Origin: a phage
Strand: one strand, 5' to 3'
DNA length: 64,000 bases
Sequence record: PZ386948.1
Below are positions 2,757 through 45,741 of the stretch, piece after piece. The notes beneath the pieces were generated by a model. The model did not search any database. It saw nothing but the letters and a program-made list of their open reading frames with translations, and had not been told where the DNA came from. The first letter of the stretch is position 1. Each line of letters opens with the position of its first letter. The position numbers and the translations under genes were made by a program.

Positions 2757-3955
2757 TTTGTAATAATGTCAAACTGTTCTTTAAAGCAGAAGCTTGAATC
2801 TTGATGCTGATACAAAAATTCATATGCTTTTTCTCGCTCACGGTCATAAAGAGCTCGGTCAGATGACAGTTCTTTAATACGTTCAAATGTTGATTCCATA
2901 TCATTTTCATCAAACCAAATGATACCGCTATCATGCGAGGTCAAAGGAGTATTATCAACACGGAATTTTAAATTTTCGCCAGTAGATTTCCAAAATACCG
3001 GAATTGTTCCACATGCACCAAGCTCGAGATGAGTATATTCTAAAGAACGTTGTAGATATTTTTTATCCAACTTACTCAACTGATAACCAAATCCGGATTT
3101 ACTCATACGTTCAAGCATTTCGCTATTTACATAACGGTCAAGAATTTGCGTTGGCAAATTAGGAGCAATTTTAATTTGGTCTACTTGATGAAGACGATAA
3201 TACTCGTATGGAATTCCTTTTTCTTTAATAGGAATGAACGCTGGAGAACGTTCCAGACCTTCCATAATAGTACTTAGTCCTGCAGGTTTAAGATGTTTTT
3301 CGTGAAAATCAAACATCTGATAAAAACCTTTCCATGTAGTCGTACGACCAATCCAACGGTTGATATTCATGTTAATTTCAGAAACATCTTTCCAGTAGGT
3401 TGACCGAACCTTCGCAATATCCATAGGAGGCTGAAAGTTATATACTGTCGGTGCTTCTTCAATATCATCAAACAGAGAAACTGTTTCTGGATACCATTCT
3501 TTCATCAGAACTTTATTAAAATCGCCATTATCAGAATGACTAAAAATAACATCAGCTCGACGAACAGTTTCTTCTAATCCCAAATTTCGGCGCAAAGAAA
3601 GAGAAGAATGGTCATGTTGATAAACTACAACACGAACAGAAGGTTTAATGTTATCAATAATTTTTTTATAGTTATTAATAGTGTCTTCTTCAACCGAAGT
3701 AGCAGGAACTGAATTGATAATTAGAATATCACAATCATTTACCAGCTTAAGTGTTTTATCATATTCTTTTGCCAATAAAACCGGAATTGAAAATGATTTA
3801 TAATCATGCGCGCAATTACGAGTAAATGATTTATCTTTAGCATAAACCAAAGTTACTTCATGACCATTTTTAATAAACCAATCACGTTGCTCAAGAGAAA
3901 ATTTAGTTACACCACAACCTTCAAGACCTCGAGCCATAAAAATACATACTTTCAT
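2753..3955 (-). CDS. a-gt: DNA alpha-glucosyltransferase
   Basis: 400 aa; MKVCIFMARGLEGCGVTKFSLEQRDWF... matches my recollection of T4 AGT; position between 55 and 47. Confidence 0.9.
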   Translation of the reverse strand: MKVCIFMARGLEGCGVTKFSLEQRDWFIKNGHEVTLVYAKDKSFTRNCAHDYKSFSIPVLLAKEYDKTLKLVNDCDILIINSVPATSVEEDTINNYKKIIDNIKPSVRVVVYQHDHSSLSLRRNLGLEETVRRADVIFSHSDNGDFNKVLMKEWYPETVSLFDDIEEAPTVYNFQPPMDIAKVRSTYWKDVSEINMNINRWIGRTTTWKGFYQMFDFHEKHLKPAGLSTIMEGLERSPAFIPIKEKGIPYEYYRLHQVDQIKIAPNLPTQILDRYVNSEMLERMSKSGFGYQLSKLDKKYLQRSLEYTHLELGACGTIPVFWKSTGENLKFRVDNTPLTSHDSGIIWFDENDMESTFERIKELSSDRALYDREREKAYEFLYQHQDSSFCFKEQFDIITK

Positions 3956-16078: not shown

Positions 16079-16981
16079 TTAAGATTTAAGTAAATCAACA
16101 ATTTTAATTAATTTTTCACGCTCAGATTTAGCTTTACTACTCAATCCAGATAGTCTGAAAATTTCATCGTCATATTGTTGAATAGAAATATTCAGCTCTT
16201 CAATTTGCTTATTAAAATAATCAATTTGTTCAGAATGTTTTTCGTTACTACGAACTGGTACAGGTTTTGTAGGCAATTTAGTTGAACTGGATTCATCCGG
16301 GCGATAAATTAAAATACAACTTGAACCAATAGGGCATTTAGCACCAGATGAATATTCTAACGTTCCAGCTTCTTTTAAAACTTCAAAAGCTAAACAGAGA
16401 TGATGCCCCATATTAACATAATCTGTAGAGCGAGCTCTGATATAATAATCATCGCCGCGAATACTAAATTTAAAGCATTTAAGGTCTTCTGTATTATTGG
16501 TCTTAAAAATCATTTGTTTATCTAGACCTTTAGCTAATCGAGCGCCTAATGCTAATAATCGTCGTTGATTTTCCCACAAATCCGCAATCATTTGATCGAA
16601 TGATAATTTCGGCATTAGTCGACCATAAAGGTCATATCCTTTATTATAATTGCGAAGGATTTCACTCGCATTAATACGAGACAACGCTCCAATTTTATTA
16701 AGGGCTTTCATAATGCGATTAGATAAACCCATTCCAGACCCGTTTGTTCGTTGTAAATGTTTATCTAATCCAAACCCAATATCAACTTTAAATTTATCTA
16801 AAATTTCAGCATGAACATCTCTGTCAATAACATTCAAATCCAAAGTTGGGTTAAATCTATGAAAAAATTTATCTGGCTCTCCACGACGAAGTACAGTCCA
16901 TTCATTTAATTTTTTATTAACTAAAGATTTAATTACTGCATTGACATTATTAATTACTACTGACATATTTTTCTCACTCAA
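16079..16981 (-). CDS. Hypothetical protein, paralog family member A
   Basis: 300 aa; coiled-coil C-terminus. Confidence 0.55.
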   Translation of the reverse strand: MSEKNMSVVINNVNAVIKSLVNKKLNEWTVLRRGEPDKFFHRFNPTLDLNVIDRDVHAEILDKFKVDIGFGLDKHLQRTNGSGMGLSNRIMKALNKIGALSRINASEILRNYNKGYDLYGRLMPKLSFDQMIADLWENQRRLLALGARLAKGLDKQMIFKTNNTEDLKCFKFSIRGDDYYIRARSTDYVNMGHHLCLAFEVLKEAGTLEYSSGAKCPIGSSCILIYRPDESSSTKLPTKPVPVRSNEKHSEQIDYFNKQIEELNISIQQYDDEIFRLSGLSSKAKSEREKLIKIVDLLKS

Positions 16982-17382
16982 TTTTCAATTTTACTAAATA
17001 CACAGAATATGATGGAAAAGACTATATAAGCACAACACACAGATTGAACTAATACCATTCCAAAGAACCAAACAATATTATCAAACAATGTCTGTTTTAC
17101 GTCGAAAGGACGTAAACTTACAGTAATATTATCGCCTTTTTCTATTGATGAATACATCTCTGGTGAAATATATTCGCTAAATCTATAACCGTCATTGAGT
17201 TCATATACGGCAATAAACGATAAACTAGACCCCTTTCCTTGAGTTCCTGTAAGGGTATTAACTACAGTAACATCATAATCTTTATAATGCATATAATCAT
17301 TAATTGCGTAATAACCATATGCAACTACTACACATAAACAACATATCAATAAATTCAATCTTTTAATTATCAACTGTTTCAT
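16978..17382 (-). CDS. Membrane protein (N- and C-terminal TM helices)
   Basis: 134 aa; hydrophobic N- and C-terminal segments. Confidence 0.5.
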   Translation of the reverse strand: MKQLIIKRLNLLICCLCVVVAYGYYAINDYMHYKDYDVTVVNTLTGTQGKGSSLSFIAVYELNDGYRFSEYISPEMYSSIEKGDNITVSLRPFDVKQTLFDNIVWFFGMVLVQSVCCAYIVFSIIFCVFSKIEN

Positions 17383-25529: not shown

Positions 25530-25717
25530 TATTCTTCTACATGTTGTTTACGACCTTTCCTATCAATAAAGGTATATTCAACGAATGTTCCAATATAGTC
25601 TTTATCTACATCATGTGGACTATTAATTGGGCATTTAGTACGGCAAATGCGTTCCCATTGACGAATAATTTCCACTTTGTTTTTAGGATCAAACGGATGC
25701 GGGTAATGTACTTTCAT
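25505..25717 (-). CDS. Hypothetical protein
   Basis: 70-aa ORF. Confidence 0.45.
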   Translation of the reverse strand: MKVHYPHPFDPKNKVEIIRQWERICRTKCPINSPHDVDKDYIGTFVEYTFIDRKGRKQHVEEYCLKVTWL

Positions 25718-26168
25718 AATCCACCACTATTAAATCAATATCAGGAGTAAACATGTCGATTAATTTAGAAACCTTATCCCAATCGCCGCCAGCAATACCG
25801 CAACCTATGCGTGGAATGTAAATTACTGGTTTAAACAAAAGGGTTTCTGCCTGTAGATTTAATTCTATCATGCAGTTTACTAAAGCACCATAATCAAGAT
25901 TAGGACCCGGTTCGTATTGTGTATACAGGTTATAGCATATACCAAATCCCGTAGGACTATGTTTAAAAACAATAGACATATCGCCTAATTTATCACGAGA
26001 ACCGTACTCGGTAGTGGTTTTATCTATTTCTAAAATTTTGGGATAGGCTCTTGCTAATTGACCCGCTACGCCAGAGCCCATTGTGTGGAAGCAATTGCAC
26101 CCGTGCGCAATAATATTACCTTGAAGAAATAGGGCGACAATATCGCCCTTGATATATTTTACAATCAT
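25689..26168 (-). CDS. Macro-domain protein (putative ADP-ribose binding/hydrolase)
   Basis: 159 aa; GDIV...GNIIAHGCNC..MGSGVAGQLA...IPRIGCGIAGGDW, typical macrodomain motifs. Confidence 0.65.
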   Translation of the reverse strand: MIVKYIKGDIVALFLQGNIIAHGCNCFHTMGSGVAGQLARAYPKILEIDKTTTEYGSRDKLGDMSIVFKHSPTGFGICYNLYTQYEPGPNLDYGALVNCMIELNLQAETLLFKPVIYIPRIGCGIAGGDWDKVSKLIDMFTPDIDLIVVDYESTLPASV

Positions 26169-26506
26169 CTAGTACTCAATCCTCGATTATAAGAATCTAC
26201 TAAACGGTCAACCATTGAATGACAAGCGGCTTTATCTTTCTCCTCCGCAACTGAACATTCTAAAGTATTCCACTTTTTAGCATATCGTTTTAACAATGTA
26301 TCATTTTTATATCTGCTTGATTTATCTCTTTCTCCGTCTTTATATGCATATATTAATTTCTGCGCAAATTCAGCTTGGCATGCTTTATTTTTCCCACAAT
26401 AATCCGCGGCAGTACGGTTTACATACTCTCTAATTTCAGTATATGATGTATCTGCTAACGCAGAAAATGAAATTAATCCTATACATAAAACCAAAATTTT
26501 AGTCAT
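26165..26506 (-). CDS. Secreted small protein (signal peptide, conserved Cys)
   Basis: 113 aa; MTKILVLCIGLISFSALA signal peptide. Confidence 0.5.
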   Translation of the reverse strand: MTKILVLCIGLISFSALADTSYTEIREYVNRTAADYCGKNKACQAEFAQKLIYAYKDGERDKSSRYKNDTLLKRYAKKWNTLECSVAEEKDKAACHSMVDRLVDSYNRGLSTR

Positions 26507-27044
26507 TTACTATTTCCAAAAGTTTATTATTTTTAAGGTAATTAGCCTTTTCTAGGACTTCAGAAGCATATTTAGAACCAGCTTTAACATTCCATCCCGA
26601 ATTATAAGAGGATATTGCTTTTCTTATATCGCCCTTATGTATATTTAACCAATAAGAAAGTTCAATGTACGCCCAGGAAGCTGAATTGGATCGTTTATTC
26701 AACATTCTTTTTATTTCAGCATCGGTCATATTATAACCAAGTTCCTTAACTCTTGCTCGCATAGTAGGCAAATAATTTTGGAACATTCCATAAGCGTGAT
26801 GCTTTGGTTTAGATTTTAAATTAACTCCGCCAGAGCTTTCTTGCCATAAAATAGCAGCCATTATATGACCTAATCCGCTCTTGTGGATATTTTTGTGTGT
26901 TTTATATTTTCCATCCTTAGAAAATTGTTCCCCGAATTGATACGCGTAACGCATGTTATCGAGTTGGACATTACTGAAAGTATGCTCGGAGCTATGTGCC
27001 ATCATTGAAATGGCCAATAGACCAGCGAGTAGTGCTTTTCTCAT
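26499..27044 (-). CDS. Secreted lytic-transglycosylase-like (SLT domain) protein
   Basis: 181 aa; signal peptide plus ILWQESSG catalytic-Glu motif. Confidence 0.55.
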   Translation of the reverse strand: MRKALLAGLLAISMMAHSSEHTFSNVQLDNMRYAYQFGEQFSKDGKYKTHKNIHKSGLGHIMAAILWQESSGGVNLKSKPKHHAYGMFQNYLPTMRARVKELGYNMTDAEIKRMLNKRSNSASWAYIELSYWLNIHKGDIRKAISSYNSGWNVKAGSKYASEVLEKANYLKNNKLLEIVND

Positions 27045-27051
27045 GCTTACC

Positions 27052-27513
27052 TCATTGAGTTTTAATTACTGCTTTAGAAGCCTTTCCTGGTAAACGACGA
27101 CTGTTAATAATTGCCATCCTACATTGAAGTGACGGGTCTTTGAACTTCGCATTAGGTTTACAAACTGTAAATCCAAGCCAAAGATTTCCATCTGTGATTT
27201 CTAAACGTCCAGGACGGTATTCAACCCCATCAATAAAATCCTCGTCAATGTCAGGACGCGGAGGCATACTCAGGAATTCATTAACTTCTAAAACATGGTC
27301 TTTTATTTTGTGGAATAATTCAAAAACATATGTCTCATCAATCTCCCGTTGAATTGCACGATCAAGAAGATGCTGAGAATATTTTAGATGAAACGATGAG
27401 ACCCCTGCTGCTTTTGATGCCTCACGAATCTCATTGTTAATTTGACGAAACTCCGACTCAAAGTGACGACGAAGCTTATTTCGACGGATAAAAACTTCTG
27501 TGTTGATAGTCAT
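27052..27513 (-). CDS. regB: RegB-like endoribonuclease
   Basis: 153 aa at the T4 regB position with its own early promoter; assignment from memory of size/position. Confidence 0.6.
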   Translation of the reverse strand: MTINTEVFIRRNKLRRHFESEFRQINNEIREASKAAGVSSFHLKYSQHLLDRAIQREIDETYVFELFHKIKDHVLEVNEFLSMPPRPDIDEDFIDGVEYRPGRLEITDGNLWLGFTVCKPNAKFKDPSLQCRMAIINSRRLPGKASKAVIKTQ

Positions 27514-27538: not shown

Positions 27539-27572
27539 AAATTATACCACAGTCAAGAGGAAAAGTAAACAG
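27539..27572 (-). promoter_or_regulatory. T4-type early promoter
   Basis: GTTTAC (27565-27570), 18-bp spacer, TATAAT (27541-27546). Confidence 0.65.
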
Positions 27573-30186: not shown

Positions 30187-30717
<531 letters not shown>

Positions 30718-43439: not shown

Positions 43440-44030
43440 ATGCTCTTTACATTTTTTGATCCGATTGAATATGCGGCCAAAACGGTGAATAAAAACGCGC
43501 CGACTATTCCTATGACAGATATTTTTAGAAACTATAAAGACTATTTTAAACGCGCTCTTGCGGGATACCGCTTACGTACTTATTATATCAAAGGTTCACC
43601 ACGCCCGGAAGAATTAGCAAATACTATATATGGAAATCCACAGTTGTATTGGGTTTTATTGATGTGTAATGATAATTATGACCCGTATTATGGATGGATT
43701 ACTTCACAAGAAGCAGCTTATCAAGCATCTATACAAAAATACAAAAATGTAGGTGGAGACCAAATAGTATATCATGTGAATGAGAACGGTGAAAAATTTT
43801 ATAATTTAATATCATACGATGATAATCCATATGTTTGGTATGATAAAGGCGATAAAGCTAGAAAATATCCTCAATATGAAGGAGCACTTGCTGCGGTCGA
43901 TACGTATGAAGCTGCTGTTCTTGAAAATGAAAAACTTCGTCAAATAAAAATAATAGCAAAATCAGACATCAATTCATTTATGAACGACCTTATACGTATA
44001 ATGGAGAAATCTTATGGAAATGATAAGTAA
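43440..44030 (+). CDS. 53: Baseplate wedge protein gp53
   Basis: 196 aa; first late gene preceding gene 5. Confidence 0.85.
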   Translation: MLFTFFDPIEYAAKTVNKNAPTIPMTDIFRNYKDYFKRALAGYRLRTYYIKGSPRPEELANTIYGNPQLYWVLLMCNDNYDPYYGWITSQEAAYQASIQKYKNVGGDQIVYHVNENGEKFYNLISYDDNPYVWYDKGDKARKYPQYEGALAAVDTYEAAVLENEKLRQIKIIAKSDINSFMNDLIRIMEKSYGNDK

Positions 44031-45741
44031 TAACCTTAATTGGTTTGTTGGTGTTGTTGAAGATAGAATGGACCCATTAAAATTAGGTCGTGTTCGTGTT
44101 CGTGTGGTTGGTCTGCATCCACCTCAAAGAGCACAAGGCGATGTAATGGGTATTCCAACTGAAAAATTACCATGGATGTCAGTTATTCAACCTATAACTT
44201 CTGCAGCAATGTCTGGAATTGGAGGTTCTGTTACTGGTCCGGTAGAAGGAACTAGAGTCTATGGTCATTTTTTAGACAAATGGAAAACTAACGGAATTGT
44301 CCTTGGCACGTATGGTGGAATAGTTCGCGAAAAACCTAATAGACTTGAAGGATTTTCTGATCCGACTGGACAGTATCCTAGACGTCTAGGAAATGATACT
44401 AACGTATTAAACCAAGGCGGAGAAGTAGGATATGATTCGTCTTCTAATATTATCCAAGATAGCAATCTAGACACTGCGATAAATCCTGATGATAGACCAC
44501 TATCAGAGATTCCAACTGATGATAATCCAAATATGTCAATGGCTGAAATGCTTCGCCGCGATGAAGGATTAAGACTAAAAGTTTATTGGGATACTGAAGG
44601 ATATCCGACAATTGGTATTGGTCATCTTATCATGAAGCAGCCAGTTCGTGATATGACTCAAATTAATAAAGTTTTATCAAAACAGGTTGGTCGTGAAATT
44701 ACCGGAAATCCAGGTTCTATTACAATGGAAGAAGCGGTAACTTTATTTGAACGTGATTTGGCTGATATGCAAAGGGATATTAAATCACATTCTAAAGTAG
44801 GACCAGTCTGGCAAGCTGTCAACCGTTCTCGTCAAATGGCATTAGAAAATATGGCGTTTCAGATGGGTGTTGGCGGTGTAGCTAAATTTAACACAATGTT
44901 AACTGCTATGTTAGCCGGAGATTGGGAAAAAGCATATAAAGCCGGTCGTGATTCATTGTGGTATCAACAAACAAAAGGCCGTGCATCCCGTGTTACCATG
45001 ATTATTCTTACGGGGAATTTGGAATCATATGGTGTTGAAGTGAAAACCCCAGCTAGGTCTCTATCAGCAATGGCTGCTACTGTAGCTAAATCTTCTGACC
45101 CGGCTGACCCTCCTATTCCAAATGACTCGAGAATTTTATTCAAAGAACCAGTTTCTTCATATAAAGGTGAATATCCTTATGTGCATACAATGGAAACTGA
45201 AAGCGGACATATTCAGGAATTTGATGATACTCCTGGGCAAGAACGATACAGATTAGTTCATCCGACTGGAACTTATGAAGAAGTATCACCGTCAGGAAGA
45301 AGAACAAGAAAAACTGTCGATAATTTGTATGATATAACCAACGCTGATGGTAATTTTTTGATAGCCGGTGATAAAAAGACTAACGTCGGTGGATCAGAAA
45401 TTTATTACAACATGGATAATCGTCTTCACCAAATAGATGGAAGCAATACAATATTTGTACGTGGCGATGAAACTAAGACGGTTGAAGGTAATGGAACTAT
45501 CCTAGTTAAAGGTAATGTTACTATTGTAGTTGAAGGTAATGCTGACATCACAGTTAAAGGAGATGCTACCACTTTAGTTGAAGGTAATCAAACTAATACA
45601 GTAAATGGAAATCTTTCTTGGAAAGTTGCTGGGACAGTTGATTGGGACGTTGGTGGTGATTGGACAGAAAAAATGGCATCTATGAGTTCTATTTCATCCG
45701 GTCAATACACAATTGATGGATCGAGGATTGACATTGGCTAA
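44014..45741 (+). CDS. 5: Baseplate hub / cell-puncturing protein gp5 with lysozyme domain
   Basis: 575 aa; OB-fold N-terminus, internal lysozyme domain (MAEMLRRDEGLRLKVYWDTEGYPTIGIGHL, paralog of e), C-terminal VxGxxxxx beta-helix repeats. Confidence 0.95.
   Translation: MEMISNNLNWFVGVVEDRMDPLKLGRVRVRVVGLHPPQRAQGDVMGIPTEKLPWMSVIQPITSAAMSGIGGSVTGPVEGTRVYGHFLDKWKTNGIVLGTYGGIVREKPNRLEGFSDPTGQYPRRLGNDTNVLNQGGEVGYDSSSNIIQDSNLDTAINPDDRPLSEIPTDDNPNMSMAEMLRRDEGLRLKVYWDTEGYPTIGIGHLIMKQPVRDMTQINKVLSKQVGREITGNPGSITMEEAVTLFERDLADMQRDIKSHSKVGPVWQAVNRSRQMALENMAFQMGVGGVAKFNTMLTAMLAGDWEKAYKAGRDSLWYQQTKGRASRVTMIILTGNLESYGVEVKTPARSLSAMAATVAKSSDPADPPIPNDSRILFKEPVSSYKGEYPYVHTMETESGHIQEFDDTPGQERYRLVHPTGTYEEVSPSGRRTRKTVDNLYDITNADGNFLIAGDKKTNVGGSEIYYNMDNRLHQIDGSNTIFVRGDETKTVEGNGTILVKGNVTIVVEGNADITVKGDATTLVEGNQTNTVNGNLSWKVAGTVDWDVGGDWTEKMASMSSISSGQYTIDGSRIDIG

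Follow-up and report, generated by a model that had tools for sequence, protein, structure and literature searches.

Lytic transglycosylases of family 1, among them E. coli Slt70, MltC, MltD and MltE/EmtA and P. aeruginosa MltF and Slt, carry a consensus composed of E-S, G-L-M-Q, A-Y-N-x-G and a downstream Tyr. In g-type lysozymes, a second acidic residue sits in the region after the catalytic Glu. Phage proteins with a related fold, T7 gp16, phiKZ gp144 and phi6 P5, are either virion-borne proteins or endolysins set free at lysis. Small binders of lysozyme-fold enzymes have also been described. T4 Spackle (sp / 61.3) is an early protein with a cleaved periplasmic signal, folded as a small alpha-helical bundle with a disulfide, and it inhibits the gp5 lysozyme domain (PMC7677548). 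Ivy, MliC/PliC and PliG are small periplasmic or lipoprotein binders, and PliG targets GH23 g-type lysozymes. Here, we analyze two adjacent genes, vs.1 and vs, in a 64,000-nucleotide stretch of phage DNA (sequence record PZ386948.1; hereafter the window). Our analysis suggests, with moderate confidence, that Vs.1, as a Sec-exported transglycosylase, and Vs, as its exported accessory partner, form a conserved and non-essential periplasmic module of Straboviridae that remodels peptidoglycan.

The two genes and the SLT similarity of Vs.1 are already known (published 2003 and 2006). The similarity of vs.1 and its orthologues to SLT domains was given in print by Nolan et al. in 2006, corroborating earlier PSI-BLAST matches (PMC1524935), and some GenBank records label Vs.1 'transglycosylase SLT domain-containing protein'. 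In the literature searched, we found no experimental work on Vs.1 and no discussion of the conflict between the annotation of Vs and its export signals. This annotation, set against the family-wide export signals and the strict pairing of vs.1 with vs, is the part that merits specialist attention.

Identity of the two genes

The window is a Tequatrovirus genome. Its segment 25600-27600 shows 100% DNA identity to Shigella phage CM8 and 95-99% identity to hundreds of T4-type phages, and the local order regB - vs.1 - vs - tk.4 is syntenic with T4. Vs.1 is 100% identical over 181 residues to T4 ORF 61.4 (open reading frame, ORF; original 1986 record X04567) and lies in the same place, between regB and vs. 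Vs shows 99% identity to T4 Vs with a two-residue indel, matches PHROG 1256 over its full length (E 5.2e-40) and is also placed as in T4, between vs.1 and tk.4. From their sequence and position, the ORFs are T4 vs.1 and vs, and both are encoded on the minus strand. The original prediction, made from the sequence without database searches, had delimited both ORFs exactly, stop codons included, leaving the strand unmentioned. It described the pair as two secreted proteins, which the sequence features support, and missed their identity as known T4 genes. This 'secreted' reading collides with the established annotation, because ORF 26165-26506 carries the label of a modifier of cytoplasmic valyl-tRNA synthetase. 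The features on which the argument relies are the following.

26499..27044, minus strand: vs.1 coding sequence, 181 residues; predicted exported single-domain SLT/GH23 lytic-transglycosylase-type protein; T4 ORF 61.4, UniProt P13311, PHROG 600
26991..27044, minus strand: predicted signal peptide of Vs.1, residues 1-18 (MRKALLAGLLAISMMAHS, cleaved before SEH), from n/h/c regions and the -3/-1 rule; a detached low-confidence N-terminal helix in the AlphaFold2 (AF2) model
26829..26852, minus strand: motif I of Vs.1, ILWQESSG (I65-G72), with putative catalytic Glu69 (codon GAA 26838-26840) followed by Ser70
26778..26789, minus strand: motif II of Vs.1, G86-M-F-Q89, counterpart of G-L-M-Q; G86, F88 and Q89 invariant
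26595..26606, minus strand: motif III of Vs.1, Y147-N-S-G150, counterpart of A-Y-N-x-G; Y147, N148 and G150 invariant
26165..26506, minus strand: vs coding sequence, 113 residues (T4: 115); annotated 'valyl-tRNA synthetase modifier'; T4 ORF 60.9, UniProt P13310
26453..26506, minus strand: predicted signal peptide of Vs, residues 1-18 (MTKILVLCIGLISFSALA, cleaved before DTS), from n/h/c regions and the -3/-1 rule; predicted local distance difference test (pLDDT) <50 for residues 1-18
26222..26398, minus strand: four invariant Cys of mature Vs, C37 (26396-26398), C43 (26378-26380), C84 (26255-26257) and C95 (26222-26224)
26499..26506, minus strand: vs.1/vs overlap of 8 nucleotides, ATGACTAA; the final codons of vs.1 and its stop contain the vs start codon

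Fold, motifs and enzyme class of Vs.1

Vs.1 matches the Pfam SLT model (PF01464) over residues 61-154 with 25.1 bits (E 1.4e-5), above the gathering score of 21.3 bits. Motifs were read from 32 aligned homologues, the most distant at 40% identity; 29 of them match the SLT model at E <= 0.01 (best 1.3e-7). The catalytic-glutamate motif ILWQESSG, which the original prediction had singled out in the second ORF, is indeed present, within the string AAILWQESSGG; in the alignment, E69 is invariant and S70 nearly invariant. Motif II carries F where L/M is usual, YN[AS]G is found in all 41 distinct homologues from IMG/VR loci, and Y159 is also invariant. Alignment of the Vs.1 family with E. coli MltE by hhalign, a weak match overall (probability 0.33) whose ES / G-x-x-Q register is convincing locally and which served solely to position the catalytic motif, places E69 on E64, the residue mutated in PDB 4hjy 'MltE-E64Q', and AYGMFQ on AIGLMQ.

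The AF2 model computed from the same alignment (pLDDT 88.9; predicted template-modelling score, pTM, 0.83) has a lysozyme-like all-alpha catalytic fold, with E69 at the C-terminal end of helix 59-70. In a Foldseek comparison of this model with the PDB, the top 19 matches are lytic transglycosylases and a GH23 chitinase. The structural matches also include T7 gp16, phiKZ gp144 and phi6 P5. With the bacterial family 1 enzymes, Vs.1 shares 12-21% sequence identity. Hence the structure prediction that had been proposed as a check on the SLT fold gives an SLT/GH23 fold. Sequence searches of the PDB, with Vs.1 as a single sequence or with the 32-sequence profile, gave no match, which tells against the assignment; the latter rests on Pfam and structure comparison because these searches were empty. 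NCBIfam gave no match for either Vs.1 or Vs.

A second point to be set against a transglycosylase is that the fold alone, as modelled, cannot separate it from a hydrolytic g-type lysozyme. Vs.1 might thus be a hydrolytic muramidase of the g-type-lysozyme kind, a chitinase-like GH23 enzyme or a catalytically silent peptidoglycan binder. However, all family 1 motifs (E-S, G-x-x-Q, Y-N-x-G, downstream Tyr) are conserved, and the 32 homologues show no conserved Asp/Glu in the segment from E69 to G86, which in g-type lysozymes contains the second acid. A second invariant Glu, E128, does exist elsewhere in Vs.1. In addition, the invariance of the catalytic Glu in the 32 sequences speaks against a dead enzyme. 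These alternatives are very unlikely in our view. The motif pattern and the lack of a conserved second acid after E69 favour a lytic transglycosylase, with Glu69 most likely acting as its only acid/base catalyst.

Compared with the family 1 enzymes listed above, Vs.1 is a minimal, phage-encoded single domain of 163 mature residues, with a predicted type I signal peptide in place of a lipoprotein anchor and accessory domains. It shares its fold class with T7 gp16, phiKZ gp144 and phi6 P5 but, unlike these virion-borne or lysis-released proteins, it has its own Sec signal, is early and is non-essential. We found no sign in this analysis of Vs.1 as a virion protein. As judged from sequence, Vs.1 is a third peptidoglycan-cleaving-type domain beside the endolysin e and gp5, and belongs to a different family. 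The original prediction had placed a transglycosylase besides these two enzymes, and both are encoded in the window:

30187-30681: endolysin e, GH24, Phage_lysozyme family
44014-45741: gp5, Phage_lysozyme family

Labels of vs.1 homologues drift in the databases and include 'endoribonuclease', 'site-specific RNA endonuclease', 'putative RegB protein' and 'C-type lysozyme/alpha-lactalbumin family protein'. In the RefSeq record of CM8, a RegB note is attached to vs.1.

Predicted export of Vs.1 and Vs

Export was called by rule, using a crude n/h/c test plus the -3/-1 rule on ORFs starting with ATG and of at least 60 residues. The anatomy sought was a positively charged n-region, an h-region of 10-15 hydrophobic residues and a c-region with small residues at -3 and -1. 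The rule flagged 4 of 131 ORFs of the window: Vs.1, Vs, the periplasmic antiholin RI and one membrane-anchor-like ORF. The last of these (16978-17382, minus strand, 134 residues) has a signal-anchor-like N-terminus, MKQLIIKRLNLLICCLCVVVAYGYY, and is without Pfam match. The N-terminus of Vs.1 parses as MRK / ALLAGLLAISMMA / AHS before SEH, with an h-region of 13 hydrophobic residues. That of Vs parses as MTK / ILVLCIGLISF / SALA before DTS, with 11 hydrophobic residues and ALA before D. The predicted mature proteins comprise 163 residues for Vs.1 (18.8 kDa, isoelectric point 9.65) and 95 residues for Vs (11.0 kDa, isoelectric point 8.9).

The signal peptides initially noticed on both ORFs have this n/h/c and -3/-1 anatomy, and they are conserved in both families. 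Of the distinct homologues from IMG/VR loci, 40 of 41 for Vs.1 and 40 of 42 for Vs begin with a signal-like segment; those that do not comprise fragments, start-codon artefacts and one borderline score. Among 43 cluster representatives of Vs, 40 start with a charged and hydrophobic stretch, and the remaining three are fragments or truncated gene calls. In both families, the signal-like N-terminus is conserved as a property and its sequence drifts. The layout of the Vs.1 signal is kept in distant relatives from Ackermannviridae (Det7 gp70) and Felixounavirus (finno_46).

In the CC31-like Karamvirus clade (33 records), the Vs signal ends in a lipobox, ...ALSGC before K (LSGC), and a lipid-anchored extracytoplasmic protein is therefore predicted. 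This lipoprotein signal, MKKLFVLLVVVALSGC followed by K, occurs in loci L043, L044, L047 and L058 (about 3549-3875; 2495-2821 in L044) and in CC31 (NC_014662, 60064-60354); the records still annotate these proteins as tRNA synthetase modifier. In the window, Vs is without the Ser-Ala of the T4 signal c-region (26453-26470) and reads SFSALA before D, as compared to SFSASASA before D in T4, with an A-x-A site in both. Other isolates vary at this c-region (SFSVLA, SASALA).

Two other readings of the Vs N-terminus were rejected. A lipoprotein signal in the window protein is not tenable, as Cys8 occurs too early and without lipobox. An internal start yielding a cytoplasmic Vs was also discarded: there is no alternative start for a signal-less form because the only internal Met is at position 98 (M98). 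When expressed in the cytoplasm, N-His full-length Vs is insoluble and forms inclusion bodies (PMC8076793), which is weak but consistent evidence in agreement with export. Overall, the sequence features support the view that Vs.1 and Vs both look Sec-exported. Literature searches on the localisation of Vs and Vs.1, on a periplasmic Vs.1, on a signal peptide of Vs and on valyl-tRNA synthetase in relation to T4 returned nothing relevant.

Pairing of vs.1 and vs across phages

Pairing was assessed in the 48 IMG/VR loci that hold a complete homologue of Vs.1, at 44-100% identity. In all 48, the next ORF after vs.1 belongs to the Vs family. The vs start lies -7 to +4 nucleotides from the vs.1 end in 47 of them, the exception being a frameshifted copy. 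The overlap of vs.1 and vs may thus reflect translational coupling, as we propose from the sequence. The adjacency is also observed in Dhakavirus, Krischvirus, Klebsiella and Acinetobacter phages. In a search from the Vs side, every Vs contig recovered also carries Vs.1. Conversely, Aeromonas phage 31, Det7 and finno have Vs.1 but no Vs. Since Vs.1 can occur alone and Vs was never found on its own, the dependence is one-way. In terms of gene content, such a pattern suits an accessory factor and not an antidote that the phage could not do without. The conserved pairing, taken with the export signals, fits better with a periplasmic two-gene module than with a cytoplasmic synthetase modifier.

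The same arrangement could be that of an enzyme-inhibitor pair, in which Vs would be a Spackle-like or immunity-like periplasmic inhibitor holding Vs.1, a Sec-exported auxiliary endolysin, until a late signal such as lysis or the collapse of lysis inhibition; this corresponds to the lysis control evoked by the original prediction. Gene order and translational coupling resemble those of effector-immunity pairs, the module is near rI in T4 and adjoins rI in Acinetobacter phage Mokit, and Spackle offers a precedent in the same phage (PMC7677548) that is attractive by analogy. Structural neighbours of Vs.1 also include enzymes solved with protein inhibitors (PliG/g-lysozyme, Tse3-Tsi3). However, many phages have Vs.1 but no Vs, and in two genomes Vs is damaged although Vs.1 next to it is intact (L028 3541-3798; L046 3549-3876). 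Moreover, lysis in T4 is already provided for by the full t/e/rI system, and vs and vs.1 are early. An inhibitor role for Vs is in our opinion improbable. As to the two damaged copies, an in-frame deletion removes the first two cysteines of Vs in L028, and a frameshift, possibly a sequencing error, interrupts it in L046.

Other genes are found next to vs in some phages. A third signal-peptide protein, of PHROG 4957, follows vs in Klebsiella phage Roth66 (L009 2863-3255) and in Acinetobacter phage Mokit (L010). In the latter, the ORFs 2824-3249, 3249-3548 and 3545-3847 encode the PHROG 4957 protein, a membrane-anchored protein and the rI antiholin, a run that forms a cluster of envelope-directed genes. 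Aeromonas phage 31 has, just before tk.4 and roughly at the position of Vs, an unrelated 146-residue protein of PHROG 9490 (ORF105c, L005 3356-3796) with a lipoprotein-like N-terminus (…IGMYGC).

Annotation, cysteines and predicted fold of Vs

All records and PHROG 1256 name Vs 'valyl-tRNA synthetase modifier', a cytoplasmic function that misfits the export features of the whole family (PF26829). Vs would then be the cytoplasmic tau factor that binds host valyl-tRNA synthetase, its N-terminus would be unused or poorly used for export, the adjacency to vs.1 would be inherited synteny, and only Vs.1 would be periplasmic. This classical role is a serious rival, although we consider it rather unlikely. 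The name itself speaks for it, and so do the four clustered Cys, which could hold a metal in the cytoplasm. Furthermore, vs alleles show genetic interaction with valS(ts) hosts. Binding of Vs to the host synthetase is credited to Muller & Marchin (1975/1977), as cited in PMC8076793. A vs knockout also shows a defect that is specific to minimal medium, and the authors of that work interpret it in terms of nutrients or translation.

On the other side, the signal-peptide property is kept over about 40 divergent members despite sequence drift, the lipobox of a whole clade points to a lipid anchor outside the cytoplasm, and there is no internal start for a signal-less form. In addition, vs is strictly coupled to the gene of a predicted secreted enzyme (48/48 loci). 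Members of the family are found in phages of Acinetobacter and Klebsiella as well, whereas synthetase modification has, to our knowledge, been described for T-even phages alone. Purified tau factor is of about 10 kDa, to which the predicted mature Vs of 11.0 kDa is closer than the 13-kDa precursor, and such a size would itself imply processing by signal peptidase. The signal peptide, the lipobox variants and the four Cys argue against a cytoplasmic location. A possible alternative, which we put forward tentatively, is that Vs, which has had its present name for 50 years, is exported to the periplasm, contains disulfide bonds, is held by a lipid anchor in some phages and is the dedicated partner of Vs.1 in a Straboviridae cell-wall module, synthetase binding being secondary, post-breakage or a wrong-ORF attribution. 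If this is true, the minimal-medium defect of vs mutants would be an envelope phenotype, not a translation phenotype.

C37, C43, C84 and C95 account for 4 of only 7 invariant columns in 13 Vs sequences (down to 24% identity), and exactly four Cys are found after residue 22 in 39 of 43 cluster representatives. The AF2 model of Vs, of moderate confidence (pLDDT 79), contains four helices (20-37, 41-60, 69-84 and 89-111). The four Cys probably form two disulfides. Vs is small, predicted to be extracytoplasmic, and co-encoded and co-expressed with a lysozyme-fold enzyme; its general anatomy is the same as that of Spackle. In contrast, Ivy, MliC and PliG are beta-sheet host proteins (PMC7677548) and Vs is all-helical. 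PDB 4g9s, which concerns PliG, is among the structural neighbours of Vs.1. If relevant, these host proteins are more likely targets or competitors than relatives of Vs.

The Vs family is limited to T4-like phages and reaches Dhakavirus, Krischvirus, Klebsiella and Acinetobacter phages (PHROG 1256, E 1e-27 to 1e-37). A narrow alignment profile gave 8 matches among 1.84 billion representatives, all of them from phages. A broader profile gave 44, all carrying PF26829 and about 100-120 residues long, with the long contigs being T4-like phage genomes. No cellular relatives of Vs were found in these profile searches. Two hits were dismissed: a ribosomal-protein match among PDB sequences at E 1, due to chance, and a spurious Cauli_AT match in the local Pfam copy at E 0.076. 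In some records, Vs is labelled 'valyl-tRNA synthetase', that is, the enzyme itself, and 'ABC transporter ATP-binding protein' is also found among the labels of the matched records.

Expression and mutant fitness

In T4 omics data, vs and vs.1 are classed as 'early RNA, middle protein', and both proteins are detected during infection (PMC9697503). According to the HIDEN-SEQ preprint (10.1101/2025.11.20.689424), vs and vs.1 are non-essential. In liquid LB medium, the mean insertion counts reported there are 26.6 for vs and 22.6 for vs.1, as compared to 178.6 for regB, 289.6 for tk.4 and 652 for vs.3, so that insertions in vs and vs.1 are 5- to 25-fold rarer than in the neighbours on either side. 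In M9-glucose, the same source gives vs as the most depleted gene (log2 fold change -2.19, adjusted p 0), with the same trend for vs.1 (log2 fold change -0.87, p 0.0055, adjusted 0.155). The vs effect is not polarity on tk.4, because tk.4 insertions are neutral. With the wild E. coli isolate CFE299 as host, significant depletion is seen for vs.1 but not for vs (log2 fold change -1.20, adjusted p 0.015; Extended Data Table 6, S8/S9 of the preprint). We found no mention of this host-dependent vs.1 phenotype in the passages of the main text consulted.

The transposon data are in line with Vs as an accessory factor. They also bear on Vs as an inhibitor. As would suit an enzyme-inhibitor pair, losing vs alone costs more in M9 than insertions in vs.1. 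However, vs knockouts are viable, and vs.1 insertions are harmful, not neutral, with polarity as a confounding factor.

Proposed mechanism

We propose the following course of events for the periplasmic module. regB, vs.1, vs and tk.4 would be transcribed early together, with vs.1 and vs translationally coupled. Vs.1 would be made with a cleavable Sec signal and reach the periplasm as an 18.8-kDa basic, single-domain SLT/GH23 enzyme. There, it would most likely act as a lytic transglycosylase on the host sacculus, cutting MurNAc-GlcNAc bonds so that 1,6-anhydroMurNAc ends remain. Vs, co-produced and exported, would adopt an 11-kDa four-helix fold with four invariant cysteines, probably engaged in two disulfides, and would serve as accessory partner of Vs.1, whether by activating, targeting or restraining it. 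The module would loosen or remodel peptidoglycan from the periplasmic side during infection and raise fitness in a condition-dependent manner, most visibly in minimal medium. Identity, fold, motifs, conservation of signal peptides and cysteines, and pairing come from the present analysis, whereas expression, non-essentiality and fitness are taken from the papers cited. That the proteins are indeed exported, that Vs.1 is catalytic, that Vs interacts with it and what the pair does in the infected cell are inferred.

Several points weigh against this mechanism, in addition to those raised above for the fold of Vs.1. Vs is annotated as a binder of a cytoplasmic synthetase, which is hard to reconcile with export. 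Its four Cys are located near one end of the predicted bundle, where a Cys4 metal site could equally well be formed. The Vs model has no likeness to a known inhibitor or cofactor of lysozymes or transglycosylases (Spackle, Ivy, MliC, PliG), and the charges of the mature proteins are not complementary in the 44 Vs/Vs.1 pairs compared, with a Vs charge ranging from -5 to +5 over the family; both findings also count against Vs as an inhibitor. In T4-type phages, the two mature proteins are basic. Polarity on vs could explain the effect of vs.1 insertions. Finally, we found no enzymology, localisation or interaction data for Vs or Vs.1 in the literature searched.

The proposed module is not the main lysis enzyme, because T4 has t, e, rI and spanins for this purpose and because both genes are early and dispensable. 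A role in lysis control, evoked by the original prediction, is conjecture; no lysis phenotype for vs or vs.1 was found in the literature searched.

Genomic neighbourhood

The elements surrounding the gene pair are listed below.

27049..27053, minus strand: Shine-Dalgarno sequence GAGGT of vs.1, read from the sequence, 5 nucleotides before ATG; overlaps the regB stop TGA (27052-27054)
27052..27513, minus strand: regB (endoribonuclease), Pfam REGB_T4 1.4e-68; directly upstream of vs.1, in the same transcription unit
27541..27569, minus strand: sigma-70-type promoter-like site TTTACT-17-TGnTATAAT upstream of regB; 10/12 matches and an extended -10
26165-26168, minus strand: overlap of vs stop and tk.4 start, ATGA
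25689..26168, minus strand: tk.4 (macro domain; AdfM), Pfam Macro 32 bits

Record X04567 annotates a ribosome-binding site at the position of the vs.1 GAGGT, and the regB-vs.1 order is retained as far as Aeromonas phage 31. The site at 27541..27569 is, from its sequence, a likely early promoter for regB-vs.1-vs-tk.4. It is kept only as a candidate because a scan of the region for promoters and terminators found such sites to be no commoner than in shuffled sequences. A GC-rich hairpin, AGGGCGA...TCGCCCT, followed by a T-run (26131-26149), is located in the first tk.4 codons, just past the vs stop. It scored as terminator-like on both strands and could attenuate vs to tk.4 read-through, or be due to chance. 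T4 Tk.4 has been named AdfM, an anti-DarTG2 factor, in the HIDEN-SEQ preprint (10.1101/2025.11.20.689424), and many records still label tk.4 'phosphatase' or 'hypothetical'. Plus-strand ORFs at 26296-26433, 26615-26749 and 26883-27008 were rejected, being short, antisense to conserved genes and unannotated in all records.

Significance for T4-type phages

In the proposed mechanism, T4-type phages would export, early in infection, a third and mechanistically different cell-wall enzyme beside gp5 and the endolysin. Mutants show a measurable fitness cost. Close relatives of Vs.1 are also found in Ackermannviridae and Felixounavirus. As for vs, its role has been puzzling since the 1960s-70s, and its importance in minimal medium was shown recently. 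The sequence of Vs and its gene context all point away from the cytoplasm and towards the periplasm and Vs.1, and an annotation that has spread over hundreds of phage genomes may need correction.

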